A DNA stretch of 60,000 bases, the filler included, from Hausera hauseri (Eukaryota), in the NCBI GenBank assembly GCA_046269625.1. It is 12 parts of 12 records of this genome, joined end to end, with 100 filler letters (N's around TTAATTAATTAA, not from the genome) between each part and the next. Parts side by side here need not be neighbours in the genome. Positions count along the whole stretch, not along the records: positions 41,208 to 46,386 come from JBJURY010315052.1; 11 more parts are not named here. One strand, 5' to 3'. This document shows positions 901 to 60,000 of this stretch, in pieces. Position numbers and translations under genes: made by a program. Position 1 is the first letter of the stretch, and the number at the start of each line of letters is the position of its first letter. The notes under the pieces were generated by a model. That model was given only the letters and a program-made list of their open reading frames with translations. It had not been told where the DNA came from and ran no database searches.

Positions 901-1080
901 ATAATCGTAGCTGGAGCGACAGGTCACCAGCATCAACCAAGTCCGGGCTAACATTCGTGAACGTTGATACTTCAGTCTTTGTTCGTTACGGTCGAAATTC
1001 AGATACAAGTATCGGAATAGAAACTACTCTTTCAATCTTACATTCAAGAAAGATAATTTCTGTCCAAAAATATCCAATAT

Positions 1081-4040
1081 AATATATATCCCGGATGCGA
1101 GACTGTATGCGGCGCAGATTACATACTATTCTATTATGATCACAAACATCATTTGAGTCACTTCGCATCAAAATCAAAGAAGGCCATCTATAATGAGCAA
1201 CATAATATTGATGCATCTGCTTCGCAGTATCATGCTTCGCAGTATTCTGCCTCGCATTATGCTGCTGGATCTGGTGCAGCAGCTGCGAAACATCTTAGAG
1301 AATTGAAACGCGCATCAGCATCAGGCGCAGCCACATCATGCGCAGCAGCATCAGGTACGGCCACATCAGATGCACCGGCTCCAACAAAAAGTCAAAGACA
1401 GCGGCCAGTTGATGCGACAGCATTAAAGAGAAAATGCCGCATATATGTTATTGATGCAACTGGCCAAACAACACTCCAAGACTTCCTCTTATATACAAAG
1501 GACGAGACAGAGGGGATTCTCCAGGACAGCATGGCGGAACTCAAAGCCCTTAAGATGAATATGAAACTGGAGGCCACATACATCAACGTTGATGGCGAAG
1601 AATTCAATAGGGCGTTCAAGACCAAAAGTAGACCCATATTGAAAAACACCAATATAGTAGAATGGATGCAAGACACGCACGAGAAGCTGACCCATGAGGC
1701 TGAGGAAAGCCAGGATAAGAAGAGCGGATGGACTCTGGCAACCATCAAGAGACTGCTTATGTACTTGCACAAGTACTCTCCAATGCGAGGCAGTTCTTAT
1801 ATTCAGCTTTCGGAATGGCTCGTAGGGAAAAAGGCATGCATCAATGTTCTTAATGACGACAACAAGTGTTTCTTATATGCCATTCTATCAAAACTCGTAC
1901 GGGATCAACATAATTCTGCACGAGTTTGGCTATATAAGAATGTGCAATACAACTATGACTTCCAATGTATTAAGTTCTCACCATCCATAGATGAAGTCAA
2001 AAAATTCGGACGACTCAACAATATACCAATCAACATCATTGGATTGGATGAGGAGGACAAATTCTATCCCCTGCAGATATGTAATGTTGAATTGGAAGAC
2101 CATAGGGATCGGCTCATTCTAGGTGATGGGAAAAGAAACATTATGTTTGGATTAAGAACTTTGAACGTCTACTCAGATTTCAAATTACGAAACATCATGG
2201 ACAAATAGAAATATGTAAGCGATGTCTGTCTCATTTCAGTGGTGATACAGCAGTGGACAGCTTGCACAGCATAAGATGTACTGTAACAACAATTACTGTG
2301 TAAGGCCAGAATTTCCAAAGGAGGCTTATATTGAATTCACGGAGTTCGAAAAGAAGCTGAAAGTCCCAATAGTTATCTATTGCGACTTTGAAGCGATCCT
2401 GCGTCCGGTTTACAGCTGCACTCCCAGTCCTCGACATAACAGCACAACGGTATACCAATATCATAAACTCTCATTATATTGCATGTATGTTAAAGGACTG
2501 AACAGTGAACCATTTCTATTCAGATGTCCAGGTGGAGCAGCACATTTCATGAAACGACTTGAAGACATGGCTCATAAACTTGAAACATGCTTCAGCAGCA
2601 TAATGATAATATGAGCATGTCGTGGAAACAAGAAGATGAATGGCGCAAGGCAACAACATGTTACTTGTGCTCCAAATCATTCACTAAGAAGAATTATAAA
2701 GCCTGGGATCACTGCCATTTTATTGGAAAATATTGGGGGCGGCATGCAACAACCGAAATCTACGTTGCAAAACATGTATATATGTGCCTGTAGTGTTTCA
2801 TAATCTTAGTGGCTATGATTCCCATTTTATTGCTCGGGAACTGGGCAGCATTGAAGGAAATATTAATGTGATCCCTAATAGTGAGGAAAAATACATTACC
2901 TTTACAAAGCATGTTGGGAAAATCAAGCTTCGCTTCGTAGACAGTTTCCGTTTCATGTAGTCTTCACTTGACAGTTTAGTGAAGAATCGGCCTGCAGAAG
3001 AACTCAAGGAGAAGAAGCGGTTCTTCCCTACTACATTTGATATTTTAAAAAAGGAAAGAAATGCTTCCCTATCATTACATAACATCATGGGAAACACTTG
3101 ATGGGACCTCATTGCTGGCCAAGAAGGACATTGACAATATCTTCTCTGATTGCAATATTAGTGATATGGACTACGAGCATGCTCAAAACGTCTGGCATGC
3201 ATTCCAATGCCGAACATTAGGGAATACAGCTATATATATACCTCAAGATGGACGTGCTGCTTCTGACGGATGTCTTTGAGGGTTTCAAAGATGTTACGAT
3301 AAAGGGCCACGCATTGGATCCGGTTAATTTCCTTACGGCCCCAGGGATGAGTTGTGCAGATATGCTGAGATATACCGGTATTAGGCTGCAGATCAAAAAG
3401 GATTACGACATGACCCTCATGATTGAGACGGGCATTAGGGGCGGAATATGCCAGGCCATTCACCGATATAGCAAGGCCAACAACAAGTATATGGTCCAAT
3501 ATGATCCATCCAAGGAATCATCATATATCATACCTGGATGCCAACAAACTATATAGATAAGCAATGAGCGTCCCATTGCCATATGATAACTTCAAGTGGG
3601 TCAAGCATTCTGAATACATCCCTATACTGGACCTAGATGCCACTGGAGATACGGGATACATACTGGAGGTGGATATGGAATATCCGGCTTCTATCCACAC
3701 AAGGCTCAACAGCTGCCTTTCCTCCCTAAGAGCAAGCCTCGCCCCATGGAAAGTATAGAAAACTGCTCTGCCATCTGGATAGTAGGGAGAGGTATGTAGT
3801 CCACTACATCAAGCTCCAGCAGGAGGTCAGAAATGGACTCCGCATTACTAAAATTTATCAAGACCTGCAGTTCAGCCAGTCCAACTGACTGCAGACCTAC
3901 ATAGATCTCAAAACAAAGCTGTGGACAAATTCCAAGAACGATTTTAAGAAGGACCAGTAAAAGCTGTACAACCGCAGCGTTTTTGGCAAGACCATAGAGA
4001 ATATCCGCAACAGAATCAACATCAAATTGGTCTCTGAGTG
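1081..4040 (+). pseudogene. Polinton/Maverick (adintovirus-like) protein-primed family B DNA polymerase with endonuclease VII-like Zn insert, fragmented
   Basis: SGWTL..KYSPMRGSSYIQL..KKACINVLNDDNKCFLYAI; ExoI IYCDFEAIL; EndoVII-like CYLC..DHCH..GAACN; ExoII VVFHNLSGYDSHFI; ExoIII DVLLLTDVFEGF; IRGGI; motif A YLDANKLY (frameshifted); motif B SVFGKTIENIR. Many frameshifts and stops; truncated after motif B. Confidence 0.92.
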
Positions 4041-17485: not shown

Positions 17486-18397
17486 ATAATGTGTTACCAA
17501 CTAACGAAGCAAACATTTGACACTAAGCGCAGGTTAAAAAAACAAAAAAAAAGGTATAGCAACCAAATAGCAGCAGTGCTATATCGAGCTAACTCATTTC
17601 CATGACAGTGATAAAGAAATATTACTCTGAAAAGTCACCACATTCTTTATAAGCGGTTTGCTAGTTATTTTATGTTATGTTAATGAGCCATCCTCACTGC
17701 ATATCACATTAACTCTATAAGTGTTCCAAACTCATGGCTAATGGCAACAGGGGTAGGAAATATGCTGCAATCAGATAATATTGTTAGTACTGAAGAAAGA
17801 AAAACGACGATATAAACATATTCAAGCAACAACAAAAAAAATGNNNNNNNNNNNNNNNNNNNNNNNNNNNNNNNNNNNNNNNNNNNNTTAATTAATTAAN
17901 NNNNNNNNNNNNNNNNNNNNNNNNNNNNNNNNNNNNNNNNNNNAATCAGAAAGAATTAAGGCACTGGCTAGGACTTTGTGGATATTACGCAACTTATGTG
18001 CCAGATAACTCGAAAATCAATGTCTCTTTATATCGCTTACTTAAAAAGGGAATCAAGTGGAAATGGACAGACGTCGAACAGAAAGCCTTCGACGAAATGA
18101 AGAAAATTTTAACAAGTGAACCTGCTTTGCGATATCCAGATTTTAACTTATCTTTCATAATTAAGACCGACGCCAGCTACCGTCATACGTATACTGTCGA
18201 CAGTAGTGGCTAAGGACCAAAAAGATTGAGACGCATTCTTGGAAAAAACTCAATTTGCAATTAATACCACACCAAACCCAGCGACAGGATTCACACCATT
18301 TTTCATGATGTATGGACGTGAAGCCGTGCTACCCACGGACTTAGGAATGGTGCCATACGCAGTTAATACCGAGGACTTATAACAGAATTTTGCAGAA

Positions 18398-20041
18398 ATG
18401 TTACAAACGCGATTGCAAAAGTGTTGGGAAATCGCTAAGGAATTATCCCGAGAATATCAAGAACAGTTCAAGACGCAATATGATAAGAGAGCAAAACCGC
18501 ATGATATAGAACAAGGAAATTGGGTTTATGTGCATTATCCAGTAGCCAAAAAAGGCACCTCGCTGAAATTAACTCGCACGGGTAGAGGACCCTATGCAGT
18601 CACCCGAGTGACGCCGACTACAGTATATATCAACAAGAATGGAAAAGAAGAAGTTGTATCAGTACAGAGGGTTGTCAAGACGGAAATACGACCCAATAAA
18701 CGTTACAGTTTACGCCAGCGAAAGATAAAAACTTCTTCAATAGTTACTAGATCGATATCTTATGTACAAATAGTATTAGCCTTGTCATTAATTGTTTCGT
18801 ATATACCTACAGTGAAAGCAAGCGCCAAACAAAAGGATATCCGGAATTTACAGACACTCAGAATACGGGACATGGATTGGAGAAAGCCATGTGCATGGTT
18901 CGAATCAGATCGTCCTATTCAGAGACACATAGGATTTCAGATAACATTTATAACGACTGGAAATGAAATGAGTGTATTCGATTTTCCATACGGACACCAT
19001 AGGAGATGCTGTAACCTAGAATTCGGGAAAGTCTATAAATATAGCTTCCAGCCATTTTATTTATATAAGTTTGGAGCTCAAGCCGACATAGCCTCAGAGC
19101 TCACAATACAAATGCCACAGCAAAAGGACACTAATCAGGAAAAGACGAACGAGATAATTCGAAGCACTGATCCGATCAACAGACTCTTAGATGATAATAT
19201 TATTGGAATTCACGAGGATTTGAGAAACCAATGCATTCGGATTAAGACCAAATTTGGATTACCGGAAGACAAGGAAATCTTAGTCCAGTTTACGCCATTT
19301 AACACTTCTATTCCTAGACCGGCGTATTGTTCGTTGGCAAAGCGACGTCCCACCGTATGCTGTGTAATACAATTTGGACAAATGTACCAACTACAATTTG
19401 ATTTGTACGATACTTATCCATGTGAACGAAGTGTTTTCTTAAGAGGATATCGCCCAAAGAACGGAATATGGGAACTTCCACTTCCCACCACTACGAGAAA
19501 ACCATCCACGACGCCGAGTACAACTCGCAGTATTACGATTATCACTACGAACGAAATGTTAGGAAGTATACCGGTCAAAATCCTAACGAAGGGCGACAGA
19601 ATTCTATTCTACGCTGAAGAAACTTTAAATAAAGACGTCAAAATTGAGTGTCGCACCTTGCATACTAACCCAGTTGTGATTTTGAAAAAGAATAGTTTGG
19701 GAACGGTGTACAAATCGTTACGACCACAACATGAGCATATAATCAGAATGACCGCGGAGGGTAAGAACCCTAAAACCTTTACAGTACGAAATCTTGGTAG
19801 TAAAATTGTAGTAATGTCGTATAATGATATTAGTACTCGAAACGTGTTCACGACGCAAAGTTCTACTGAACCGAGTAATTTACCAATAATAAATATATTT
19901 GGTGTGTCAATTTCCGTTCTTGTCATAATAACAGCGATGACTGTTCTAGTCTCCAAAAATTGTAATAAACGCGGTAAAAATCGAAAGGGAGATAATTGGG
20001 AAAAAGGCAACCTAGACGGACTTTATGATAGCATAACCTGA
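18398..20041 (+). CDS. Integrase C-terminus fused in frame to signal peptide, three FN3-like modules, Thr-rich stalk, TM and a short Tyr-motif tail
   Basis: Hydrophobic SISYVQIVLALSLIVSYIPTVKAS from 18752; CCNLEFGKVYKYSF / CCVIQFGQMYQLQF / KSLRPQHEHIIRMTA; PTTTRKPSTTPSTT; TM IINIFGVSISVLVIITAMTVLVS; tail ends LYDSIT. The FN3 call is by motif only. Confidence 0.75.
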   Translation: MLQTRLQKCWEIAKELSREYQEQFKTQYDKRAKPHDIEQGNWVYVHYPVAKKGTSLKLTRTGRGPYAVTRVTPTTVYINKNGKEEVVSVQRVVKTEIRPNKRYSLRQRKIKTSSIVTRSISYVQIVLALSLIVSYIPTVKASAKQKDIRNLQTLRIRDMDWRKPCAWFESDRPIQRHIGFQITFITTGNEMSVFDFPYGHHRRCCNLEFGKVYKYSFQPFYLYKFGAQADIASELTIQMPQQKDTNQEKTNEIIRSTDPINRLLDDNIIGIHEDLRNQCIRIKTKFGLPEDKEILVQFTPFNTSIPRPAYCSLAKRRPTVCCVIQFGQMYQLQFDLYDTYPCERSVFLRGYRPKNGIWELPLPTTTRKPSTTPSTTRSITIITTNEMLGSIPVKILTKGDRILFYAEETLNKDVKIECRTLHTNPVVILKKNSLGTVYKSLRPQHEHIIRMTAEGKNPKTFTVRNLGSKIVVMSYNDISTRNVFTTQSSTEPSNLPIINIFGVSISVLVIITAMTVLVSKNCNKRGKNRKGDNWEKGNLDGLYDSIT

Positions 20042-38699: not shown

Positions 38700-40930
38700 T
38701 GTTTGCATGGAGCAGATAAATCCTTGCCTCTGAGTAGCGTTTGTTTCTTAGCTTGTTAGAAGTCGACAACGATCATATTGTTAGTATTCCTACTGGGGGT
38801 CGCATGGATAGTGAGCGACATTTCGTTGTGGGCTTTTTCTGATTTGTATAAACCGATGTCAACAATGCGGTTATTTGTTAATCCATCAGGCATGTGTGCC
38901 TTCCTGCTGTATACCTCAAGATATCTCGGCACCTTACTGGGATCAGCAGAATTGATACCGAAGCGTACACTAAAAATTACTGAGTCCGGTCGCCAGTTGC
39001 TAATGGCCATTGCTACGGGGTTTTTACAAACAACTGTGATACCCGGTTCCTGATTGGCCATGCAACTATTATGTATATACTGTAGAGTATAATTCCAACA
39101 GCCGATCTCTACTGAACGAAACGTCGTCCTACTGTTCAAAGTGCTTGAAAAAATCAACGGATATATGATCACATGATAGGTCATCAAGAAAAACGCTATC
39201 CTGAGTCTTGTGCGGCTTTTGTTGACCCTCTATAATTGTTGTTGGATCATCGGTAATATGTTAAAACACAGGTGCGCGATCCAAACAACAATATAAATAT
39301 GAATTTCTGAATGAGTCGCGTAACCAGTACAACACATCAGAGGTAGGGACCATAGATGCTATAGCAGTGTGACTACATCCGTCATTGATTGTGCGCGATA
39401 TGTCAAACATGTCCAGTGATAGTGGTAGCACTGCCGTGCCTCTCTGCTACACGATAGGCAAATCCGGCCGGCCCAACAGCCAAGCATAACGGTGTGTTAT
39501 TGTGTGCGCAAACGGCTGTCGGTAAACCTGGTTGATGGGGAACAGATGTGCATCTGGTTAGAGTTAGCGGAGGGTCGTTGCCAGTTATATCGAGAAAGTA
39601 GTTGGTATCGACGTACAGATCATCAGCACCCGTTTCCAAAACGACACAGAACGCATATTCGTTATTATCATCGTCAGAATTTTTAAAATTTGAAATGGAT
39701 AAAAATATCAACTTTACATGATTGAAAAATCCCATGTCCGAGTGCCACGAAATAAGGAAGCAACGTTTCTGACACAATTTATGGAAGTTTGGCTGATAGT
39801 TGATCGTTTCCAAACAACTAGACACGGGGAATATATTTAGGATTCGTTTTCCAAGAATTACATCTGAATCATCTAAAGGTTCGGTTCGTATAGTATGGCG
39901 CCAGACTCTTGTCACGTCCTGTGTAATATCACCCGTAAGTACAATTGATTCATTACAACATAATCCCCTGAGCACCAATACGTAACTGGTGAATATTCGA
40001 GGATTCCCCAAAAGATCTCTCAAGCTCCGAATGACTTTGAAAAGTGTTGCATTCTCATATAATGTACGATGATTAACGTTCCGATCGGCAACGCCCTCGT
40101 TACTCAGGTAGGGTACAAATGATTCTGATGTAAACGCATCTGATGTTGGCCATAATTTAATTGCTAATGACGATACAAACGACGACACATTCATCAATTT
40201 AAATGTATCCGTGTAACAATACGGATGTTCGACGATTTCTAATGAGGATACAAAATAAAACTCATTCATTTTTTTTTTCAAATGACTCGACCCGTAGTTT
40301 TTTCACCCCTTTCGGCACGTAGACGATAAAACCTGTTACTAAATTATCATTACGTATCAACGGTGCGTTCATTTTTTGGAATTTATCCACCGCCTCATTT
40401 GTAATTAGAAATTCAAAACATTCGGACAGATTCTGAACACAAAAACCAGCAATGTCGTAGTTATTTAAATCATGGTAATCTCTGAAACTCAAGGAACTCT
40501 GATAACCAAAACTTATGTTTTGATCTCGTCCCAAATGAGTAGCCTTTTGTAATGATACGCTCAACGTATGATATAGAAGTTTATCTAATTTCATCAAATT
40601 ATTGACATTGAATAACTCGACTACTGAATTTTGATTGTGTTCGTTCGAGAATGGGGATGTATCAATATATTCAAACGAATTATTCAACGAATTCGGATCA
40701 TCGCTTTTTGGGTTTAAAATATTCGATAGCGCTGTAACTGTATTAACGAAACATTGATTAATACGCTTCCTTTTACGGCATGCAACTGCATATTTACCTT
40801 TTTAACTTTATTTCCAAAGCTATAGATTTCCAGTAACATGAATGAAACTGTTGGCCAATCTTTATGATGAACTTGGCTAAAAAAGAATCGAAACGATATT
40901 AAAATCCAAATTTTAAAACAGAATAACAAA
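38700..40930 (-). pseudogene. UBR4: Highly divergent UBR4/p600-like internal fragment, with stops and frameshifts
   Basis: Collinear with the UBR4 sequence as I recall it: SVPHQPGLPTAV..NTPLCLAVGP (EVMNHPGLVCC..GVPLVVMVKP); DG..YWLRDS; VDFFKHFEQ*DDVSF..LLELYS (IDFFEH..TDVEF..LLQVYN); VPRYLEVYSR (APSYIEIFGR). The part above about 39900 is not recognisable. Confidence 0.6.
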
Positions 40931-41207: not shown

Positions 41208-44200
41208 GCAAAGGTATCCTTGTATTGTTTTAATATTTTAACTATTCCTTCCTTCTCCCCATCTGTTAGGGTACTATCCTTGCCAAACAAGTCGAAATCA
41301 TTCCAATTAATTGGAGTTTTAACAAATTTTGTTATTTTCTTCTTTTTATCAATATGTCCTTTTAATCTATTTATAGGTTTTGTTTTAAATCGTATGCCAC
41401 ATTCCTTTTTTGGACTCTGCCGTTGTTTTTCCATAAAATCGCACAACTCTTGTACAGTGGAGATAATGGCTTCTGTTGCCTTATTGCCTATATCTTTTAT
41501 AATATACACATAGGCAATTCTTGTACCTTTTCTAAGAATTTTGGGCTTGTTTGAAACATTGGCTATCCGAATAATCACTTGTTGTTCACGGATATTATCA
41601 ATTGTATGAGCTATCCATAATTCGCTCTTGTTCATAAAATTTATATTTGGCTCTATATAAACGTCACCTTCATATCTTTTTTCCACCACTGCTTTAAGTA
41701 CAACTTCTGTTCTGGCTGGAATCAGTACGTCTTCTTTGATAGAGACTGTATCCCTCTTCTCTCTTTTCATCTGTTGAAAAGGTTGAATTTGCTGAGTTTC
41801 TAAATGAATACACATGCCTTTCAGTTTTGCCAACGCATCACAACCAAGTATGGCTTCTGCTACTAATTCATCTGCTATTCTAAATTTTTGTTCGAATTTT
41901 CGATTCGTAATTTTAGTATAACATTTTATTATATCTCGTACTTGTACCTTTGTTCCGAAAGCGCCAACATTCGTAAGATCTTCTGTGGGTTTCTGTAACT
42001 TTTTCTTTAATTGCTCTGGCAACTGTTTGCGAGAGATCATCGAAGCCAATGCTCCTGTGTCTATTATTGCAGTAAGAGGATATCCGTCTATCCAAATTAC
42101 TACTCTTGGAATTACTTTTCCTCCATCTATACTTGTTATCAAAGCCTCTTTTGGGGCCGTTGGATAAAATTTGAGTCTCACGTGCTTCGGATCGTAGTTA
42201 TCTACATCACTAGAACAATGTATATCTATATATTCATTAGGAGACATAAAACATTGTTGTTCCATTGGATATTCACTCCATTGTTTCATTTGGGGAATAT
42301 CCGAAAGTAAGGTTCTTTGTTTCTTACTTCGAGCAGTGATTAAACTCCATGTCTTTTTAGTATGTTCAAGTGATTGAGGTTTTATTTCCTTCACCTTCTT
42401 AGTCGAGTTTATTGGAGATTCATCGTCATCGTTATTTGAATCATTCTTATTTTTCTGCTTCCATTCAGCGTCCTTTTTCATTAGGAAACAGCTAGCTATG
42501 AATGGAATTACGGCGTAGATGATTTTCCATGTACATCCAACAGCTTGTTTTATACCATATCCTTTTGTAATCATAGTTAAAATTGCTTTTATAAAGGCAA
42601 AAATATAATAAAATCCCAACCATCCAGAATTAAACTGACCAAACCACATGTACCATCCCCATGCGGTTGCAAATATATCTTTAGCAATTCGTTTTGCATA
42701 ATCGGGTCCCATTAAGTTTTCCCAATTAGCTTTTCCATCATGATCAGCTAATACTTTCATAGTCATTTCCGTTAGGACTTTTTGTCTTTGCTGAGGAAAC
42801 ATCATCATTCTTCTATGATTTTCCATGTCTTGTTCTGAGTATACTCCCATCTTTACTAGATCCGTCAATGGTTTATATGTTTGTTCGGTCTTCAAGTTAA
42901 TAAGACTAATTCTACGCGGCGGCGTAATCTGTTCCCTTTTTGGCATTCTTACCCAAAAATTATCGCTCAGTCTAAATGCTGGCGACATTGTGTATGTACA
43001 ATTTTGATGTATGTATGGTTTTTCTGTCGGGTCCAACAATATCCGAGTAATTGGTTGTAAAAATCGTGGTTTCTCTTTATACCAAACAGGTAACTCCATA
43101 GTGCAGTCCGTGGTTGGTCTTAATTTGACTGCTACCTTCGTGCACTCAAAGGTAACGAGTGTTTCTCCCATTGTTCGTGCAAATTTTCCTTCCGCATCTG
43201 GCGATTCAGCTGGATCTTTTATCACTCCATCTGTTATTGTTGATAAATAGATTCGGTTTCTAATTATCTCTCTATTTAACTTACAGTCGTTTAATATTAT
43301 TTCTCGGTACATGGCATAAATATTTTCTTGCTGGAAGTAATAAATGAAATCGATTTTATTATCGAAATACAAGTGGGGTTTCACTTCTGATTTATCAATT
43401 TTCTTCTTAGCTTTTAGTATCTCTGTGGTAGATAAAAATATTCCTTTATAATTTGTTCGGAATACAGTTTGATCACATCTTCTGGTATCACTTTCCAGTT
43501 TGAATCTCATACCATCCTGAGGATTCGCTAAATATACTACAGTGGGAGTTTCAATCATATCCGATACTCGATCTAATCTACTCTTAGATATTTCCTCTTT
43601 ATACACTCGTCCTTTTGTTTCATTAAACTTTCCTACCTTTAACAAAGCTAACTGACATTGGTCCCGGTCAACTTCATATGACATAATTGATTCACCAGTG
43701 TCGCATTCTTTATTATAGTAATCACATTCAGGAAATGTCATCATCTTTCCTGAAGATAGTTCGAAAAGGGCATCATACTCTCTCAGCTCGACTTGATAGT
43801 CTTCAATAGCCACTATATTATCTAAAATTTCACCGTTGATATTATAAGACTCACCCTTACAATATCCTGTCTTGTCGATTGTTCCAGCCACAAAAATTCT
43901 TTTATTGATAATTTTCCCTTTCTGAGCTTTCAGTCTAATATTACCAATATTAATCTGTTTTGTCACGAAAGCCTCTATGCACATCCTCTTGCTTATAGGA
44001 AGTGGTTCAAACGGAGTAGTTGGTTCGACTATTGCCGAATTTCGATACCAGTAACCACAAATGAAATGGAAATGATTTTTTCGAACAAAGCATTCCTTTA
44101 CTTTAGTTTTCATAAACTCCGACTCTTGATAAACGTAATATTGTTTTTCTGGTATTATAGTTAATGACGCTGGATTAGCAAATGGGCATTTCTCTAGTTT

Positions 44201-44974
44201 TAATAAAGAATATATTGGACCCTCCTTTGCTTGACTACAATCATAAGCGATAATCGAGAGAGCCTTTGGCATTAGGCTAAACAGAAGGAGTATAGGTATA
44301 ACCTTAGTTAACCAGGATAGATCAAATTCTGGTTGTGGATTTCGTTGAATTTCCGATTGTTGAGGTGGACGATGTTCTGTTCGTTGTTGCATGATTGGGG
44401 CTGATTCGTGTATTGCCGTATGAACCAAGCTAATAATCCAACCACCTCTACATTTTACCCATCCTTCAACATTAGCCTTTAACGCTCTCGTAGCGATTTC
44501 TATATTTCTCTCTATCTCTTCTTGATTCGGATTTACACTGTTCATTACTATTATTTTATATAAGAGATAGGACATTGCTGTCACAATTTTATTTCGGGAT
44601 ATGCCAGTTCCCATCATTCTGGATAATATATCTCTTTCCTGGATTTCGTTTATCCTTTCATCTGTAGGAATATCTGCAAATTGTTCACTAATCTTTGCAA
44701 TTTCATTTCTAATACTTTGCATTAATAAATCCGGTATTTGTAGATTGGTATTAAACTCAACAAATGCATTATGCATTCTTGCTAACAGGGTTTGAAATAG
44801 TGTTGTAAGTGATACATTATCTACGTCATATTCGTCCTCCGTTGTTAGTAATCTTTGGACAACTTCGTCATCTCTAGCTTTTCTGCCTTTCAACTGATAA
44901 AGTTTCGTTGTTCCTTTTGGTCTACCACGGTTTCTTTTATCCGTTTGTATTTGCTCTGATATAGGCATATTCAT
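41208..44974 (-). CDS. Polyprotein: AT-hook, helical region, signal peptide, chuvirus-like glycoprotein, TM, retropepsin, pre-RT linker (frame open from 45121)
   Basis: RNRGRPKG; signal WLTKVIPILLLFSLMPKALS|IIAYDC (mature start 44254); Cys-rich ectodomain; WGWYMWFGQFNSGWLGFYYIFAFIKAILT..WKIIYAVIPFIASCFLM (to 42479); AIIDTGALAS (Asp at 42061) and EAILGCD; LTDGEKEGIVKILKQYKDTF. Confidence 0.9.
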
Positions 44975-45054
44975 TCCGGCTTCTACTTGTTCTTGTTGTT
45001 GATGTTCAACTTCTTGTGCCTCTTTTGGTCTAACATCAGTATATATCTCATCAA

Positions 45055-46386
45055 TTATCTCTTGTTCGGTCTGTTTGTAAGTGATGCATACAGGATTATA
45101 TCGGTTTCCCAGATACCTACTTCATATAAGGTTTCATAGTCCATCAGCGTTCGCCCATAGAAGCGTAACTCTAATTCTCCTTGGGGTTGACTTATTTCGT
45201 TAATTTTATGTTTCAACATATCTATTGTATCCAACGATCTCATCCTGAGAGCATGGAAATCTTGATTATATTGTTGGAGAGTAACTATTACTTCGGGGTT
45301 TTCTCCAACTGTCCTCACTCTATCTGCATATCGATAGATTATATACCGTACGATATTTTGATAAGGACTCGTACCGGCAGCATATATTAACAACAAGTCC
45401 AATAAATCAACAAATTGTTGATGGTTAATCGTTGGCATTAATAACATAGATAAATCTTGTCTAAATCGATTGCCATCAATTAATTCTTGGTTGTTATAGC
45501 TAGCTATTTTGCGAACTATTTCTACGCCATTCTGATCTAAGTCCACAGACGAAGATTCATAACTTGGAGATTTCTCCTTTATCTTCTTTTTCCTTATCCT
45601 TTTTATCTTTTCTTTAGGTTCATTTTCTCTGCTTGATTCACTTTTTTCACTTTCACTACCTGTAGATAAGTTGAGTTCTGGGGTTTTCAATTCTTCTTCC
45701 TGTATCAAGGGTTTATCTTTCTTTTTAACCCTTTTCTTCTCGACGTCCGATTCCGATGCGGGAGTCTTTTTGGGTCTACCGATGGGAGCGATGACTGAAT
45801 TTTCATCATTTATTTTCTGTCTTTTCTCACAAATTTGTTGCTCCTTTAGTTCGAAATACAGCTGTTTTAATTCAGCTATCTTATCTTCATCTTCTATTGT
45901 ATTAATCTTACTTTCTTTCAATTTAGATCTGATCTTTTGTTGAAGTTTTTCTATAGTATCTTCGGGTTCTGTGTCAGTGGTTTCATGTTCTTTATCTGTG
46001 TCAGATATATTTCCAATCATTTCGACCTGCTTCTTCCTTTGGTTTGATTGTCCTTGATTAGGGCAGGAACGAGCCATATGTCCATATTTTTGAAATGAAA
46101 AACATAATGGCTGTCCATCTTGATTAACCGGAGGCTTTCTCTTGGCAGATTTCTGAGGTTGGTTTTGCCAAGAAACCTTTTTCTGCTGTTGTTCCGGTTG
46201 GCTAGAATACTTCTGAAAAGGCTTTTGCTGAAAATTTTTCTTTTGTTGAAAATTTTTCGGCTTCTTGTCATCACTTTTGGGATGCTTTTTAATATTCTCG
46301 AGTCTTTCATAATTGACTTCGATTTTTCTGGCCTTACTGACGGCTTCTTTGTAAGTATCCGGATCTGCAACGATAATATAATTTTG
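45055..46386 (-). CDS. Gag C-terminal part, degenerate zinc knuckle, charged linker and ubiquitin-like domain (open from the contig edge)
   Basis: Frame is open from 46386: PDTYKEAVSKARKIE (gypsy capsid end), CFSFQKYGHMARSC (CCHC knuckle with the 2nd Cys as Phe), Ubl LRMRSLDTIDMLKHKI..LRFYGRTLMDYETLYEVGIWETDII at about 45294-45085. Confidence 0.85.
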   Translation of the reverse strand, partial: QNYIIVADPDTYKEAVSKARKIEVNYERLENIKKHPKSDDKKPKNFQQKKNFQQKPFQKYSSQPEQQQKKVSWQNQPQKSAKRKPPVNQDGQPLCFSFQKYGHMARSCPNQGQSNQRKKQVEMIGNISDTDKEHETTDTEPEDTIEKLQQKIRSKLKESKINTIEDEDKIAELKQLYFELKEQQICEKRQKINDENSVIAPIGRPKKTPASESDVEKKRVKKKDKPLIQEEELKTPELNLSTGSESEKSESSRENEPKEKIKRIRKKKIKEKSPSYESSSVDLDQNGVEIVRKIASYNNQELIDGNRFRQDLSMLLMPTINHQQFVDLLDLLLIYAAGTSPYQNIVRYIIYRYADRVRTVGENPEVIVTLQQYNQDFHALRMRSLDTIDMLKHKINEISQPQGELELRFYGRTLMDYETLYEVGIWETDIILYASLTNRPNKR

Positions 46387-50836: not shown

Positions 50837-52020
50837 CATACTACTTGGCGTTGTAAGAGTCGAAAGATGGCCTTGGCACCAGGATGATGCAACTAATGGA
50901 TGTTGTTGAATGCTTCTTTTTAAAGCAATTCAGAAAGGATGACTTTAAAATTATTAGGCTTGGAGGTGTCAAAGGCCACACCGTCAATGGTTTTGCACGA
51001 TTTAAAAGATTTAAGAATGTCAGTGGGTGGATTGTTTTGTTGAAATTTGGATTGAGGAAAAATTGGTGTAAAATCAATCGAGTTGACCGATCGGGGCAAA
51101 AAGTCAGCTACTAAATTGTCGACTTTGTTTAAGTGCTTAATTTCAAAATTAAATGTGGAAAAATACGATATTTGCCTCTCCTGACGTAGAGAAAGAGATT
51201 TCATAATTAGAATTTGAAGCAAGGGCTTGTGGTCCGTTTGTATTGTAAAGGCTCGAGCGGTTAGCAGATGCTTAAACTGTTTTACGGCAAGGACTATTGC
51301 AAGCAACTTTCTGTTAAAAATGGAATATCGTTGCTCTTGTGCCGTAAATTTTTGAATGAAGAATTCTAATGGCTTATGGGATCCATTTTTGACTTGATGG
51401 AAAACAGCACCTGCAGCTGTTGTGGATGCATCCGTGGTTAAGAAGAGTTCTGCATGGGATTCTGAATAGGCCAGGATTTCCGCGGTTTTTAGATTATCTC
51501 TAGGGTGGTCGAAAGCGTTGACTAGTTTGCCGGTGCATTGAATGGGCTGTTTTTTCTTGCCAGAGCTTAGTGATGCAAATGGAGCGGTTAGAGTGGGGCA
51601 GTGTGGAAGATACTTATGAATAAAGGGCAAGGTTCCGAGGAAGGAACGCACCTCTGTGGATGTACGTGGTACTTGCATGTTTTTGAGCAGTGTGATGCGT
51701 TCTGGCTAAGGCGAATGTCCGGAGGAACTAACAACATGTCCTAGGAAGTTGACCTTATGTTGATAAATGGAGCATTTAGAAAAATTGATTTGCAAGTTGT
51801 TTTGGTGCAAGCACTGGAAGATTAGACATAAGTGTTCGGAGTGTTGTTTTGAGGAAGATGGTGCAATTAAGATACCATCGATATAGGGATAAGCAAAGTC
51901 TAAACCTGAGAGAAGTGTATCAATATGCTTCTGAAAGGTCTGAGAAGCGCTACGGAGTCCGAAGGGCATGAAAAGATATTCAAAAGGGCCGAAAGGTGTA
52001 ATGACAGCTGTGAGGCCCTG
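50837..52020 (-). mobile_element. Ty3/gypsy (Mag/CsRn1-like) pol relic: RT and RNase H
   Basis: MPFGLRSASQTFQK..YPYIDGILIA..INFSKC..VNFLGH; VRSFLG; LTTDAS..QRYSIFNRKLLAI..TDHKPL..NLVADFL. Confidence 0.92.
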
Positions 52021-52099
52021 AAATTTTGAAAGAATTTGGGTACGATAAATTTGACTTTGACTTCAATGACTATTAATTCATATTGGCTTACAATCATTT

Positions 52100-53000
52100 T
52101 GTCGAATCTACTTTCAGCTGTTGACAAAACATATAATTATCGCTGCACATGAATTGTGGTGGGGCCCGAGTCCGCGGCACCACAATTTCTGCTTGTAGAG
52201 AACCTGCCATCTGGATAATGTCATGTGACACATTTACTTGTGATTGCACATCAGACACTACCTTTAACATGCTTTCTTTGCAGATAGCCCAGGTAATGCA
52301 TTTGGATGAGATAGCAGCGGGTTGTTCGTCTTCATTGACATATGGTTCCTCCAATATAGTTCCTTGGAGTACGGTTGTTTCCCAATCAAACGACAACTCG
52401 TCATTTGCAGGTGCATCACTGTCGATGACTATGAATTCCTCAGCCGTCATTGAGTTGTCATATTCAAGATGCAGTCCAAGTATGAGTTCTGTCAGAGTGA
52501 GATCATCCTCATCCTCCTCTATGGTCTGCACTATGTCTTGAAAACCACATCTTGCGAAACAGCGTTCAATTGTTGAAGCCTTGATGTAACGTACATCATC
52601 TCTAATCCAGTAGCATACATCCAGGATAGAGTCAGACTTTGCCAAGCCGTCACCCGAAGTCTGTGTGTCAATGGCACTCCCAACACAGCGAAGATGGGAT
52701 TTTTGATAAATCATTTTCAAGCCTTGTATTATTCCCTGGTCTAGTGGCTGCAGCAGGGCTATAGTATTTGCGGGTAAAAAGAGAAGCTTGACATTTCCGA
52801 AGTGGCTATCGCTCACATGAGAGTGAGTGTTGCCAATAATGAGTAAAACACGGCGGCTCGACCGGTGCATCTTATCGCTGAATGACGATAACCATTCGCG
52901 GAACAGTAAACATGTTATCCTAGCCTTTTTGTTCCATCTCCAGGTTACATATACCGTTACAAGATTCTTGAAGCTGCGGTGTGAATACGACTTTCCAATG
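52100..53000 (-). mobile_element. pogo/Tigger (DDE_1) transposase C-terminal part; one catalytic Asp appears lost
   Basis: WRWNKKARIT..RRVLLIIGNTHSH (LxxDN read as GN)..VKLLFLPANTIALLQPLDQGIIQGLK..TIERCFARCGF. Confidence 0.9.
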
Positions 53001-53295
53001 ATCAGTGACAATAGGTAGATGAGAGCACGCAGCACTACCCTCGGAGGAAAAATTGATGTGGTTCGCGGATGAGTCATGGGGTAGAAAAAACGATACACGC
53101 ACGCACTATTAATAGGGCGGTGATGGGAGACACACAGTTACGAGAGTGATACCAGAAGCAGGCGTACTGTACGGTTTTTAAATAGGTGTGCAAATTCGAA
53201 TTTGGCGCTCAAAATTTTCTGTTTAAATAATGGTGGTTTGGTATAAATATGGGTGTGCAAATAGCATGGCGTTGTTTTAACAAATAGTACGACAA

Positions 53296-53743: not shown

Positions 53744-54200
53744 TTATACAATAATGTCCATATGCGACACTTTTGTTCTTGTCAATCCACTGGCGTTTGT
53801 TGTCAAACGGGTCCAAGGCCTTTTTCTCAATTGAATTGTCATGAGCTGGTGATTTTTAGTCCCAATTCGTTCGTAGTCCACCATCGTCCCACAACCGGTT
53901 TCATAAGCATTTAGGTAGTTGTCGAACTGTAAGTCTGCCTGCAGGAGATTGATCCCTTTGCATTTGAGGACTAGTCTGCTTTGAGTTTTCAATGCATACG
54001 ATTTAGGCCATAGGAAAATCCCCTCTTGATACTCGACAAAGCCCTTGCTTTCGTCTTTAAATTTGCCTATGAGAGATGCGAAACGACTTGAGTACAGCGG
54101 ATCCCTTTTATCATATTTCGAAGTGTCTAGCTGCTCATTAGCTCTCATTGCTGTCAGGAGCTGTGTTCGCAAATCAACACCATAGCATTCGAGAAAGAAG
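53744..54200 (-). pseudogene. Polinton/adintovirus-type pPolB C-terminal fragment
   Basis: LDTSKYDKRDPLYS..LIGKFKDESKG..FLWPKSYALK..KCKGI..FDNYLN. Confidence 0.88.
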
Positions 54201-54671
54201 CTGACGCTTATATATCTCCAACTACATATAATTCAGTTCATACATGCACAAATTGGAGAGATCAAGTTCGGCCTACTCGATAGTAAGTAGATGTGGCATC
54301 TTCCGGCCATATCCCCATTGAAGGAAGGAAATAAGTAGTTCGGAGATGAGTCATGAGGTAGAAAAAATGATAAAAACATACACGTTTAATATGAAAGAGA
54401 AAATGGAAAATGGATACACACAAGCACGTGTACTGCATGGATTCGGGCAGTAAGGAAAATTTTGAATTTCGTGCGAAAAAATTTGTTTTAATTTCGGTAG
54501 TGAACAAAGGAATTTCTGGCCTGATCGTGGTTTCACTATTTCCACCCCATTTTCTTAATCTGATTGGTCGGTTTGAGGCAAAAATTGTTTACATTTTCTA
54601 TAAATACCCATATGAAAGTGTCACTTATGAAAATGTCTCAACCACATATCTTGACATCATTTAAGTCGAAA

Positions 54672-54959: not shown

Positions 54960-57900
54960 AAACGAACGAAAAAACGAACGAACGAACGAATGAATCAACG
55001 GAAGAACGAACGAAAGAATGAATGATCGAGAGAACATATGAACGACCAAAAGATCGAAAGAACGAACGAAACAGCGAAAGAACGAAGGCAGGAAGGAACG
55101 AAAGAACGAAAGAACGAACGAACGAAAGAACAAATGAACAAATGAAAGAACGAATGAACAGTGGTAAGAACGAAAGAACGAATGAACAGAGGAAAGAACG
55201 AACGAACGAACGAATGAGAGAACGAAAGAACGAAGGAACGAAAGAAAGAACGAACGAAGGAAGAAACGAACGAACGAAAAAACGAACGAACGAACGAATG
55301 AATCAACGGAAGGACGAACGAAAGAACGAATGAACAGAGGAAAGAACAAAAGAAAGAATGAACGATGGAACGAACTAAAGAAAGAACGAACTCACGAATG
55401 AATGAAAGAACGACTGAACGAACTCACGAAGAAACGAACGAAGGATCGAAAGAACGAAAGAAAGAACGAAGTATGAAGGAAAGAAGGGAAGAATGAACGA
55501 AAGAATGAAAGAACGAAGGAATGAAGGAACGAGCTCACGAAAGAACGAACCAAGGAACGAAAGAACGAACGAACGAACGAAAGAAGGAAAGAACGAATGA
55601 AGAAAGGAAAGAAAAAAATGACGGACGAACGAACGAACGAACGAAGGAAGGAGCGCACGAACGTACGAAAGAACGAGCGAAGTAACGAAAGAACGAAAGA
55701 ACGAATAAATGAACGAATGATCGAACGAACGAACGAACAAATGAGAGACACAAAAGAACGAGCGAACGAAAGAAAGAACGAACGAACGAAGAAAGGAACG
55801 AACGAAAGAACGAACGAACTAACGAATGAATCAACGGAAGAACGAACGAAAGAATGAATGATCGAGAGAACAAATGAACGACCAAAAGATCAAAAGAACG
55901 AACGAAACAGCAAAAGAACGAAGGCAGGAAAAAACGAAAGAACGAAAGAACGAACGAACGAAAAAACAAATGAACGAATGAAAGAACGAAGAAACGACCG
56001 AATGAATGAACGAACGAACTCACGAAAGAACTCACAAACGAACGAAAGAACGAATGAACAGAGGAAAGAACGAAAAAACGAACGAACGAACGAATGAATC
56101 AACGGAAGAACGAACGAAAGAATGAACGAAAGAACGCACGAACGAACGAACAAACGAACTCACGAACGAACGACCGAACGAATGAAAGAACGAATGAACA
56201 AAGAAGTAAACGAAATAAAGGACGATCGAACGAACGAAGGAAGGAAGGAGCGAACGAACGTACGAAAGAAAGAACGAACGAAGGAAGAAACGAACGAACG
56301 AACGAATGAATCAACGGAAGAACGAACGAAAGAATGAATGATCGAGAGAACAAATGAACGACCGAAAGATCGAAAGAACGAACGAAGCAGCGAAAGAACG
56401 AAGGCAGGAAGGAACGACCGAATTAATGAACGAACGAACTCACGAACGAACTCACGAACGAACGAAAGAACGAATGAAAAGAGGAAAGAACGAAAGAACG
56501 GACGAACGGACGAACAAAAGAACGAACGAACGAACGAACAAATGAACGAATAAAGGAATGAAAGAAGAAAGGAACAAACGAACGAACAAATGAACGAAGA
56601 AACGAAAGAACGAGTAATCTAAAGAAAGAATGAAGGAAGGAATGAAGTCACGAATGAACGAACGAATGAAGTAACGATCGAACGAACTCATGAAGAAAGG
56701 AACGAAGGAACGAAAGAACGAGCTATTGAACGAACGAAAGAAGGAAAGAAGGAACGAAGGAACGAAAGAACGAACTCAAGAATGAACGAAAGAACGCACG
56801 AACGAACGAACAAACGAACTCACGAACGAACGACCGAACGAAGGAAAAAACGAATGAACAAAGAAATGAACGAAATAAAGGACGATCGAACGAACGAAGG
56901 AAGGAAGGAGCGAACGAACGTACGAAAGAAAGCACGAAGGAACGAGAAAACTAACGAAAGAAAGAACGAAAGAACAAATGACAAAACAAAGGAACGAACA
57001 AAGGAACGAACGAAGGAACGAACGACCGAACGAACGATCGAAAGAAGGAGCGAAGGAAAGTACGAACGAAGGAACGAACGAACGAACGCACGAACGAACA
57101 AACGAACGAACGAACGAAGGAACGAAAGAACGAAAGAACGAACGAAAGAACGAATGAATGAACGAATGATCGAACAAACGAACGAACGAATGAGAGAACG
57201 AAAGAACAAAGGAACGAAAGAACGAAAGAAAGAACGAACAAAGGAAGAAACGAACGAACGAAAAAACGAACGAACGAACGAATGAATCAACGGAAGAACG
57301 AGCGAAAGAATGAATGATCGAGAGAACAAATGAACGACCAAAAGATCGAAAGAACGAACGAAACAGAGAAAAAACGAAGGCAGGAAGGAACGACCGAATG
57401 AATGAACGAACGAACTCACGAACGAACGAAAGAACGAATGAACAGAGGAAAGAACGATAGAACGAATGAAAGAAGGAACGAACTAAAGAAAGAACGAACT
57501 CCCGAATGAAAGAAAGAACGACGAAACGAACTCACGAAGAAACGAACGAAGGAACGAAAGAACGAAAAAAAGAACGAAGGAACGAAGGAAAGAAGGGAAG
57601 AATGAACGAAAGAATGAACGAACGAACGAAGGAAGGAAGGAGCGCACGAACGTACGAAAGAAAGAACGACGGAACGAACAAACGAACGAAGGAAAGAACG
57701 AACGAACGAACGAACGAATGGAAGACCGATTGAAGGAACGAACAGACGATGGAAAGAACGAAGGAACAAACGAAGGAACGAAAGAACGAAAGAACGAACG
57801 AAAGAACGAAAGAACGAAAGAACAAACGAAAGAACGTATGAATGAACGAATGAATGAACGAATGATCGAACGAACGAACGAATGATCGAACGAAAGAAGG

Positions 57901-60000
57901 AAAGAAGGAACGAATGCACGGAAGAACGAACTCAAGAATGAACGATAGAACGAAAGAACGCACGAAGGAACGAACGAGCGCACGAAGGAACGAACGAAGG
58001 AACGAAAGAACGACGGAACGAACTCACGAAGAAACGAAAGATGAAACGAAAGAACGAAAGAAATTACGAATGAACGAACGAAGGGAAGAATGAACGAAAG
58101 AATGAACGAACGAACGAACGAACAGAAGAAAGAACGAAAGAACGAATGAAAGAGGGAACGAACTAAAGAAAGAAAGAACTCACGAATGAACGAAAGAACG
58201 AAAGAAGGAACTCACGAAGGAACGAAAGGACAAACGAAGGAACGAACTCACGAACGAAGGAAAGAACGACCGAACGAACGAAATAAAGAACAATTGAAGG
58301 AACGAACAGACGATAGAAAAAACGAAGGAACAAATGAACGAACGAAAGAACGAGCGAAGGAACGAAAGAACGAAAGAACGAAAGAATGAAGGAAAGAACG
58401 AATGAATGAACGAATGATCGAACGAATGAGAGAACGAAAAAACGAAGGAACGAAAGAACAAAAGAAAGAACGAACGAACGAAGAAACGAACGAACGAACG
58501 AATGAATCAGCGGAAGAACGAACGAACGAATGAATGATCGATAGAACAAATGAACGACCAAAAGATCGAAAGAACGAACGAAACAGCGAAAGAACGAAAG
58601 CAGGAAGGAACGAAAGAACGAAAGAACGAACGAACGAAAGAACAAATGAACGAATGAAAGAACGAATGAACAGTGGAAAGAACGAAAGAACGAATGAACA
58701 GAGGAAAGCACGAACGAACGAACGAATGAGAGAACGAAAGAACGAAGGAACGAAAGAACGAAAGAAAGAACGAACGAAGGAAGAAACAAACGAACGAAAA
58801 AACGAACGAACGAACGAATGAATCAACGGAAGAACGAACGAAAGAATGAATGATCGAGAGAACAAATGAACGACCAAAAGATCGAAAGAACGAACGAAAC
58901 AGAAAAAGAACGGAGGCAGGAAGGAACGACCGAATGAATGAACGAACGAACTCACGAACGAACTCACAAACGAAGGAAAGAACGAATGAACAGAGGAAAG
59001 AACGATAGAACGAATGAAAGAAGGAACGAACTAAAGAAAGAACGAACTCACGAATGAACGAAAGAACGACGGAACGAACTCACGAAGAAACGAACGAAGG
59101 AACGAAAGAACGAGCTATTGAACGAACGAAAGAAGGAAAGAAGGAACGAATGAACGAAAGAACGAACTCAAGAATGAACGAAAGAACGCACGAACGAACG
59201 AACAAACGAACTCACGAACGAACAAACGAACGAAGGAAAGAACGATTGAAGGAACGAACAGACGCAGGAAAAAACGAAGGAACGAATCAACGAACGAACT
59301 ATCGAAAGAACGAGCGAAAGAAAGAAAGAACTAAAGAACGATTGAACGAAAGAACGCACGACCGGACGAACTCACGAACTCACGAACTCACGAACTCATG
59401 AACGAAAGAACGAATGAACAGAGGAAAGAACGAAAGAACGAATGAAAGAAGAAACGAATTAAAGAAAGAACGAACTCACGAATGAACGAAAGAACGACGG
59501 AACGAACTCACGAAGAAACGAAAGAAGGAAAGAAAGAACGGAAGAAAGTACGAAGGAACGAAGGGAAGAATGAACGAAAGAATGAACGAACGAACGAAGG
59601 AAGGAACGAAATCACGAAAGAACGAAGGAATGAAAGAAGGAACTCACGAAGGAACGAAAGAAGGAACGAAAGAAAAAACGAAGGAACGAACGAACGAACG
59701 AACGAACGAACGAACGAACGAACGAACGAAAGAACGGACGGACGAACGATCGAACGGACGAAGGAGCGAACGAATAAAGGAACGATCAAAGGAACAAACG
59801 AAGGAACGATCTAAAGAGCGAACGAAAGAATGAACAAAAGAACGAAAAAACGAATAAACGAAGGAACGAACGAATGAGAGAACGAAAAAACGAACGAAAG
59901 AAAAAAGGAACGAAGGAAGAAACAAACGAACGAAAAAACGAACGAACGAACGAATGAATCAACGGAAGAACGAACGAAAGAATGAATGATCGAGAGAACA
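54960..60000 (+). repeat. Degenerate (GAAC/GAAA/GAAT/GAAG)n tetranucleotide satellite with higher-order blocks
   Basis: More than 5 kb of strongly purine-rich AACG-type units; marker ATGATCGA(G/T)AGAAC at 55022, 55858, 56338, 57314, 58534, 58850 and 59986. Confidence 0.97.

Follow-up and report, generated by a model that had tools for sequence, protein, structure and literature searches.

Domain order along the contig

The window analysed here, 60,000 nt of joined Hausera hauseri DNA, includes contig JBJURY010315052.1, which occupies exactly positions 41208-46386 (5,179 bp) between N spacers and carries a retroelement on the minus strand, to which all features below refer. An open-frame scan of the contig identified a frame without stops from 45118 to 41210, comprising 1,303 codons; in 300 simulated sequences of similar dinucleotide composition, frames reached at most 239 codons. 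This frame encodes, in order, a Bcl-2-like domain, an internal signal peptide, a 592-aa glycoprotein, a linker and a retropepsin, and in the H. hauseri copy a different frame, upstream, encodes Gag and a ubiquitin-like domain. The initial annotation had described a frame of about 3.9 kb running from the signal peptide; the frame is indeed open, but it starts ~0.8 kb upstream of the signal peptide, where a Bcl-2-like domain had been overlooked. The contig opens within the last part of the capsid domain and terminates before the expected RT. Since it ends within an ORF on both sides, the LTR, tRNA primer-binding site, RT, RNase H and integrase lie outside the sequence read.

The end of the Ty3/gypsy capsid domain (46288-46386) aligned with residues 156-188 of a close relative, P0001, the remaining Gag lying beyond the contig. 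Residues 20-175 of P0001 matched the capsid regions of P0005 (E 3e-20) and P0006 (E 4e-14), both of which gave weak matches to Retrotrans_gag / Ty3_capsid. Gag and a CCHC zinc knuckle share one ORF in P0001 and P0005-P0007, and the P0001 knuckle is intact (zf-CCHC E 2.5e-4). A Gag with a zinc knuckle had been placed upstream of Env from the start, and that is where it lies (knuckle, 46063-46104), but in the frameshifted H. hauseri copy it is not in frame with Env and the knuckle is degenerate, with CX2CX4HX4C unmatched and one ligand absent. A helical module (45307-45519) follows, which aligned in the H. hauseri copy, P0001, P0005 and P0007 and twice in P0006 (MAFFT, chosen stretches) and matched P0005 by BLASTP (E 5e-6). 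The ubiquitin-like domain (45076-45306), disrupted where the frame shifts near 45.1 kb and continuous in P0001, matched Pfam ubiquitin below the curated cut-off (E 4.6e-5), and 55 of its 56 PDB matches were ubiquitin, ubiquitin fusions or variants, or ISG15 (best E 0.0016). In the Bcl-2-like domain (44438-44725) the BH2 motif W..GGW is kept and BH1 is altered; Pfam Bcl-2 was matched under the cut-off (E 0.0009-0.007) in 3/3 aligned members. With a three-sequence profile, the best 60 of 101 PDB matches were all Bcl-2/Bcl-xL (best E 3e-4); the stretch had no PDB match as a single sequence, and none was found among the best 60 PDB matches of the mixed profile A2.

A signal peptide is predicted at 44255-44311 (hydropathy peak 2.15), and a hydrophobic stretch precedes the AYDC motif in 5/5 aligned sequences. 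The mature Env starts with IIAYDC at 44254 and runs 592 aa to 42479. Its ectodomain (42629-44254) is of the gB/chuvirus type (class III fusogen family), as assigned by Pfam Monjiviricetes_fusion (PF24664; aa 274-915, E 1.8e-80 to 1.9e-75), and is followed by a membrane region (42479-42625) with a conserved strong hydrophobic segment at 42569-42625 and a weaker second one at 42479-42535. The retropepsin, an aspartic protease with a DTGA active site (41816-42109; RVP aa 1004-1101, E 1.8e-10 to 1.1e-9), has IIDTGA at aa 1018. The end of the signal peptide, IIAYDC, the extent of Env and IIDTGA all fell where the initial annotation had put them; its statement that the glycoprotein runs straight into the retropepsin did not stand, as a variable linker of ~120 residues in open frame (42110-42478) separates membrane region and protease. 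A possible dUTPase-like domain follows at 41492-41746: dUTPases made up three of its five PDB matches, all weak (E 0.42-1.2), Pfam gave no match, and the stretch is common to P0159, P0010 and P0009, where it lies between protease and RT. The last part, 41208-41491, is open to the contig end and, judging by the order in relatives, would be the linker before RT.

Conservation and predicted structure of Env

All 14 Env cysteines were invariant in four sequences sharing 35-37% identity, and the signal and membrane layout was kept as well, suggesting that the fold of Env has long been under selection. In Kyte-Doolittle 19-mer maxima, the first hydrophobic segment of the membrane region scored 1.61 in the H. 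hauseri copy and 1.97-2.42 in three relatives; the second scored 1.73 and 1.26-1.31, respectively, and was weak in 3/3 relatives. Taken alone, the higher value of the second segment in this copy would allow two membrane passes and a protease in the lumen, which speaks against the one-pass topology proposed below.

The AlphaFold model of Env had a mean pLDDT of 30.3 alone and 38.7 with eight sequences, being confident only at residues ~253-363. Foldseek with this low-confidence model returned chu-like virus glycoproteins at the top (E 1.2e-14, at TM-scores of only 0.1-0.2), and the other matches were rhabdo- and orthomyxo-type glycoproteins and herpes gB (E 1.6e-3). Env had no match in the PDB by sequence, a search of the ESM Atlas returned no usable match, and of the 59 pattern matches to Env in IMG/VR and the 321 in JGI metagenomes, none was confirmed as a relative.

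The two closest copies, H. hauseri and P0001, are broken or cut short, as might be expected if the element were a purely intracellular retrotransposon whose Env is no longer fusogenic and has another role or none. This reading sits poorly with the 14/14 cysteines and the signal and membrane layout retained at 35-37% identity, and we regard it as unlikely.

The frame break, relatives and genomic copies

Because the frameshift cuts the ubiquitin-like domain, the H. hauseri copy itself likely cannot make the full protein. P0001 reads through from Gag to Env in one frame and spans both H. hauseri frames back to back, at 64% and 82% identity. A programmed frameshift or splice point near 45.1 kb, which would yield Gag by itself and less Env-Pol, as in an ordinary gypsy element, would agree with the ~65-base overlap of the two frames in a -1 relation and would solve the problem of Gag excess. 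However, P0001 lacks a break at the corresponding place, alignment of four relatives shows that the break takes away the final strand of the ubiquitin-like domain, zero slippery heptamers were in register with the upstream frame, and at the break the H. hauseri stretch is unlike the contigs of other copies from both runs, making a programmed event very improbable. Differences by codon position (19 third, 10 first and 9 second; 38 among the 40 listed of 921 rows) were too few to use.

Env was followed by protease in one chain in 12 of the 14 long relatives scanned, and the gypsy order Env-PR-RT-RH-IN was present in 6 of the 14, a set in which P0012/P0155 and P0015/P0159 are cluster mates and not independent. 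Three of three further relatives had the order capsid-knuckle-Env-protease. Pfam, P0001 and the relatives' order together bear out the initial reading: the element is of Gypsy type, and in its one polyprotein a chuvirus-related Env of class III type sits between Gag and protease. On the contig itself, Ty3/gypsy Pol is represented by the protease alone, with PR-RT-RH-IN seen in those six relatives; gypsy membership of the H. hauseri copy would thus be drawn from relatives at 24-38% Env identity, a point against the explanation favoured below. P0005-P0007 terminate after the protease(s), without RT, so the family members may not all be a single protein. Of 25 relatives whose clusters were looked up, one carries a Flavobacteriaceae MAG label and is probably host DNA in the bin.

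In an Env tree of 62 sequences (midpoint root; 45 of 117 short matches used), the H. hauseri Env grouped (support 0.993) with three fragments and every one of the 16 long polyprotein Envs, and 42 stand-alone glycoproteins, at ≤23% identity, lay outside this clade. One cluster of stand-alone glycoproteins includes wasp proteins. This grouping with polyprotein Envs and not with stand-alone glycoproteins suggests that Env was likely inherited rather than freshly captured, and casts doubt on the direct capture from a chuvirus assumed at first. A new lineage with a recently captured chuvirus glycoprotein in a novel gag-env-pro-pol order would find some encouragement in the modelled fold, for which the nearest viral folds appear to be chu-like virus glycoproteins, and in the Env identity gap, with no full-length match between 38% and 82%. 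Against it stand the tree, the agreement of the ubiquitin-like and Bcl-2-like cargo with Burro elements, and a gag-env-pol order already published, as the available text of PMC6431247 and PMC13524379 describes. Env is neither nested among viral stand-alone glycoproteins nor a stand-alone gene, as an Anakin-type recent capture would have it, and is in frame with the protease. We judge such a new lineage with a novel gene order highly improbable.

The element family is present in many genomic copies: two runs yielded 19,063 and 2,142 family contig pieces at 85-99+% identity, spread over all 30 bins, where read or contig depth of family pieces is not a copy number. Depth of related pieces falls at 42385-42442, within the linker, and diverged copies bridge the membrane region and the protease side. 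In run X2, one 763-nt contig covers 42443-42662, and 42443 is connected to 42007 by a joint of equal depth (39.1); joints in run X1 connect 42449 to 42152 and 42605 to 42357. With thousands of diverged pieces, some of them bridging Env to protease, the family is multi-copy and the junction no chimera. Misassembly that joined an endogenous viral glycoprotein to a gypsy fragment, or the collapse of many copies into one mosaic, could be imagined for a short, fragmented contig of a high-copy family whose sequence may blend copies and which no listed piece covers whole, but the bridging contig and joints, the mere 1-3% of placed pieces that continue unlike the stretch, and the recurrence of the same order in independent proteins leave it barely credible. 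By tblastn, neither the frame nor P0001/P0005-P0007 matched the other retroelement pieces in the window (17944-18380 and 50920-52062); these queries lack RT, and the pieces therefore cannot be assigned to the element.

Burro-like elements and a model of the polyprotein

The initial annotation knew of no element with this gene order. In the available text of Arkhipova & Yushenova 2019 (PMC6431247), however, planarian Burro/GYPSM1 elements carry env in frame between gag and pol, in the order Gag, ubiquitin-like, Bcl-2, mononegavirus-like Env, protease, dUTPase-like and RT. That text presents Burro1-4/GYPSM1 as gypsy-like LTR retrotransposons of Schmidtea mediterranea, with a Burro-like element in Dugesia tigrina (citing Grohme 2018 and Jurka 2007); they are LTR-bounded and up to 30 kb in the planarian genome, with a 4,873-aa Burro ORF and giant ORFs of ~4,900-5,100 aa bearing MATH, BIR and ankyrin cargo. 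As far as described there, they share with the H. hauseri family a mononegavirus-like Env in frame between a Bcl-2-like domain and the protease, a ubiquitin/SUMO-like domain before the Bcl-2-like domain and the latter before Env, and many copies. The single Burro ORF also includes Gag with CCHC knuckles and a post-protease dUTPase-like stretch; in the present family the knuckle is intact in P0001 but degenerate in the H. hauseri copy, and the dUTPase-like match is weak. Compared by description, the H. hauseri element is far more compact, with one knuckle and Env from residue ~810 of P0001. MATH, BIR and ankyrin had zero Pfam matches in the H. hauseri frames or P0001, and ankyrin matches occurred only in relatives P0006 and P0155. 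As a giant ORF with such cargo was not found, we refer to the element as Burro-like, not as Burro proper.

The earlier view, which placed captured env genes 3' of pol, proved incomplete, since the accessible parts of PMC6431247 and PMC13524379 describe GAG-ENV-POL elements. The latter (Chary & Hayashi, eLife 2026) reports them, in the portions available, from Platyhelminthes, Nematoda and Bryozoa; its errantiviruses with HSV/gB-type ENV include Smed_errantivirus_1-6 of group Platyhelminthes_C1a, and share with the H. hauseri element the gag, env, pol order, an HSV/gB-type (class III) Env and multiple copies. By eye, the six Schmidtea C1a sequences presented there and the H. hauseri Env agree in their motifs and cysteines, whereas the insect, branchiopod, bryozoan and cnidarian Env rows shown lack those motifs and cysteines together. 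The article treats GAG, ENV and POL as ORFs and nowhere uses "in-frame", "fused", "frameshift" or "dUTPase". It also relays, in the same available text, non-canonical nematode ERVs (Sacco et al. 2022), metaviruses that likewise have an RNA-virus-type glycoprotein ahead of pol. In Jingchuvirales glycoprotein EVEs, a chuvirus-related glycoprotein is linked to an LTR element, according to the accessible text of Dezordi 2023 (PMC10084718). Gene order and cargo are thus already in print, and the H. hauseri element is a compact further example.

Anakin BEL/Pao elements, attributed to Dezordi in 2020, reportedly also link a chuvirus-related glycoprotein to an LTR element. The Anakin env is a separate gene downstream. 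The two differ in that Anakin belongs to BEL/Pao and the present element to gypsy, and the H. hauseri Env stands apart from stand-alone glycoproteins. Troyka was rejected as a match, having no envelope in the available text of PMC12440569.

The H. hauseri copy is very probably a decayed, truncated member of a multi-copy, Ty3/gypsy-type, Burro-like GAG-ENV-POL family, whose intact members likely encode one polyprotein, predicted to pass through the ER membrane, in which Gag is followed by the ubiquitin-like and Bcl-2-like domains, the signal peptide, gB-type Env, the protease, a dUTPase-like stretch and RT-RNase H-integrase. Host signal peptidase and the element's own protease would be the cutters. 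The Gag, ubiquitin-like and Bcl-2-like parts would remain cytosolic, the internal signal would direct Env to the lumen, and a single true transmembrane pass would bring protease and Pol back to the cytosol. The signal remnant left by cleavage would anchor the Gag-Bcl-2 part to the membrane beside Env, an arrangement that would promote the budding of enveloped particles able to pass from one host cell to another; both processing and infectivity are inferred. Several points count against this explanation: both structure models are poor, and the ubiquitin and Bcl-2 matches are under Pfam cut-offs. Retroviruses do not make Gag, Env and Pol in equal amounts. A single frame would yield equal Gag, Env and Pol, unlike retroviruses, which by analogy weighs against a one-polyprotein model.

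A bolder proposal, which we offer tentatively and consider doubtful, is that of a minimal Burro in a non-planarian host. The cut Env signal peptide would here be a tail anchor fixing the Gag-ubiquitin-Bcl-2 half to the ER, one helix that places at the budding site both the capsid and a viral Bcl-2 mimic blocking cell death, in a flavivirus-style infectious assembly. No tests of processing or particles were found in the available text of the literature on GAG-ENV-POL elements. If both hold true, this would be a retroelement assembling like a flavivirus, with its own death-blocking module. Env identity in the lineage has dropped to 24-38%, yet the helical-ubiquitin-like / Bcl-2-like / Env / protease core persists, an argument for a single-polyprotein design that is both old and workable.

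Reading frames and domains of the element

The element (positions 41208 to 46386, minus strand) is one entire contig of the window, which is a series of 4- to 7.5-kb contigs separated by N spacers. Two minus-strand frames, each open at a contig end, span it: an upstream frame of 443 codons (46386 to 45058) and a long downstream frame of 1,303 codons (45118 to 41210). The longest frame in simulated sequence of the same make-up was 239 codons (300 trials). The element is a real feature of known kind. Pfam searches of the long frame returned Monjiviricetes_fusion at aa 274 to 915 (E 1.8e-80) and a retroviral protease at aa 1004 to 1101 (E 1.1e-9), and we confirmed the signal peptide, AYDC start, 592-aa glycoprotein and DTGA motif placed there by the initial annotation. 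Env had been described as running straight into the protease; the frame is indeed open throughout, but some 120 linker residues lie between the membrane region and the protease. A Bcl-2-like domain preceding the signal peptide had been overlooked. This domain is weak in Pfam (E 0.0009 to 0.007), retains the BH2 tryptophan motif and has an altered BH1; with a profile built from the window and the relative proteins P0001 and P0006, the best 60 of 101 PDB matches were all Bcl-2 or Bcl-xL (best E 3e-4). The upstream frame ends in a ubiquitin-like domain (Pfam E 4.6e-5, with PDB matches too), and a faint hint of a dUTPase-like stretch follows the protease (E 0.42).

The proposed Gag-Env polyprotein is out of frame in the window copy but continuous from capsid to Env in P0001, the one close relative, which terminates inside Env. 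P0001 aligns to the upstream frame through its residue 524 (64% identity) and to the long frame from residue 525 (82%), and therefore reads capsid-knuckle-ubiquitin-like-Bcl-2-like-Env unbroken. Because the frame break interrupts the ubiquitin-like domain, the knuckle is degenerate and other copies differ from the window at the break site, the window copy is best read as decayed.

The Env-protease join in copies and relatives

The initial annotation had itself raised the possibility that the Env-protease join was an assembly chimera. Two public runs contain the element, and the better match of the two may be its source. When contig pieces from these runs were placed on the element at 85% likeness, 19,063 and 2,142 pieces covered all 30 bins, mostly at 85 to 99% identity, and the element thus belongs to a large, diverse repeat family. 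No single piece among them spanned the entire element. A 763-nt contig from run X2 sits on the membrane region, and an equal-depth joint connects it to the protease 435 bases further; contigs from run X1 bridge the two similarly. Of four long matches from a first protein search, three were new, and all three carried capsid, knuckle(s), Env and protease in a single chain. A separate, full HMMER search gave 1,010 matches at E ≤ 0.001. Among 14 long relatives scanned, Env was followed by protease in 12 (two pairs being cluster mates), with RT, RNase H and integrase continuing after the protease in six; two ended before any protease. Given the bridging contigs and this recurrent order, a chimera is very unlikely.

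The window copy has a single protease domain, and tandem domains follow Env in P0005, P0006, P0007, P0009 and P0155, with two, two and four DTG sites in the first three and two and up to six Pfam stretches in the others. P0006 also contains two helical-plus-ubiquitin-like modules (residues ~500 to 930), the second ending in di-glycine, as ubiquitin does; this possible host-protease cleavage site is missing at the matching place in P0001. The Env-PR-RT-RH-IN polyprotein P0010 (NCBI HBK71150.1) carries a label that traces it to a Flavobacteriaceae MAG, but it is probably animal DNA mis-binned there.

Ancestry of Env and known elements

An Env tree (62 regions, 574 columns, FastTree, midpoint root) took in all 16 long matches and the 45 of 117 short ones with sufficient cover. 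One clade (support 0.993) joined the window Env to three fragments and to every one of the 16 polyprotein Envs, its identity to these being 24 to 38%, and 42 stand-alone glycoproteins fell outside the clade, at 23% or less. Ectodomain cysteines were invariant at 14 of 14 positions across four sequences. A low-confidence structure model ranked chu-like virus glycoproteins first, followed by rhabdo- and orthomyxo-type proteins and herpes gB; at TM-scores of 0.1 to 0.2, these matches indicate kinship, and the fold itself stays putative. Env is therefore chuvirus-related, but its clade with polyprotein Envs, apart from stand-alone glycoproteins, suggests that it was long inherited within the retroelement lineage.

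The initial annotation did not know the gene order from described elements. Chary & Hayashi (2026, PMC13524379) already report that Nematoda, Bryozoa and Platyhelminthes carry GAG-ENV-POL elements whose Env is of gB type, citing Sacco et al. 2022 for the nematode elements; their six Schmidtea sequences have Env motifs in common with the window Env, as judged by eye. Planarian Burro elements (Arkhipova & Yushenova 2019, PMC6431247) have the same domain order and likely the same mode of working, but their giant size and MATH/BIR/ankyrin cargo are absent from the seen part of the window element. For this reason the element is placed, on its predicted domains, within the GAG-ENV-POL group as a compact, Burro-like form and not as Burro proper.

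Proposed processing and other features of the window

Drawing on general knowledge of ER polyprotein handling and on the anatomy of the element, we propose that the N-terminal half of the polyprotein would remain cytosolic, the internal signal would deliver Env into the lumen and a single membrane pass would return protease and Pol to the cytosol. The window membrane region has two hydrophobic segments of similar score. Three relatives, by contrast, have a strong first segment (1.97 to 2.42) and a weak second one (1.26 to 1.31), a pattern that speaks for a single true pass together with a helix on the membrane surface. The Env N-terminus would be released by signal peptidase, leaving the Gag-ubiquitin-like-Bcl-2-like part tail-anchored, and the protease would cleave the remaining junctions. 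Stoichiometry sits badly with this one-protein model, as a single frame yields no Gag excess. Since the P0005, P0006 and P0007 chains stop after their proteases, some family members may reach pol by recoding.

A second retroelement contig, not linked to the element, lies at 17944 to 20041 (plus strand) and begins with a remnant of RT-RNase H (E 1e-10). As judged by eye, the remnant is followed by a stretch resembling an integrase tail, which continues in the same frame through a signal-like hydrophobic segment and a domain of ~400 aa that bears a Thr/Ser-rich stalk and ends with a membrane segment at the C-terminus. Positions 1057 to 2208 (plus) and 53744 to 54232 (minus) presumably resemble pieces of Polinton/adintovirus-type DNA polymerase genes, and a Pfam search of both gave no match. 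Three tightly packed frames of 179, 299 and 157 aa at 38756 to 40801 (minus) had no above-noise Pfam match. On the minus strand at 50920 to 52062 and 52094 to 53137, decayed gypsy RT/RNase H (E 3.6e-15 and 1.8e-24) adjoins a DDE_1 transposase (E 6.7e-27), and positions 54960 to 60000 form a ~5-kb purine-rich tandem array of short period.
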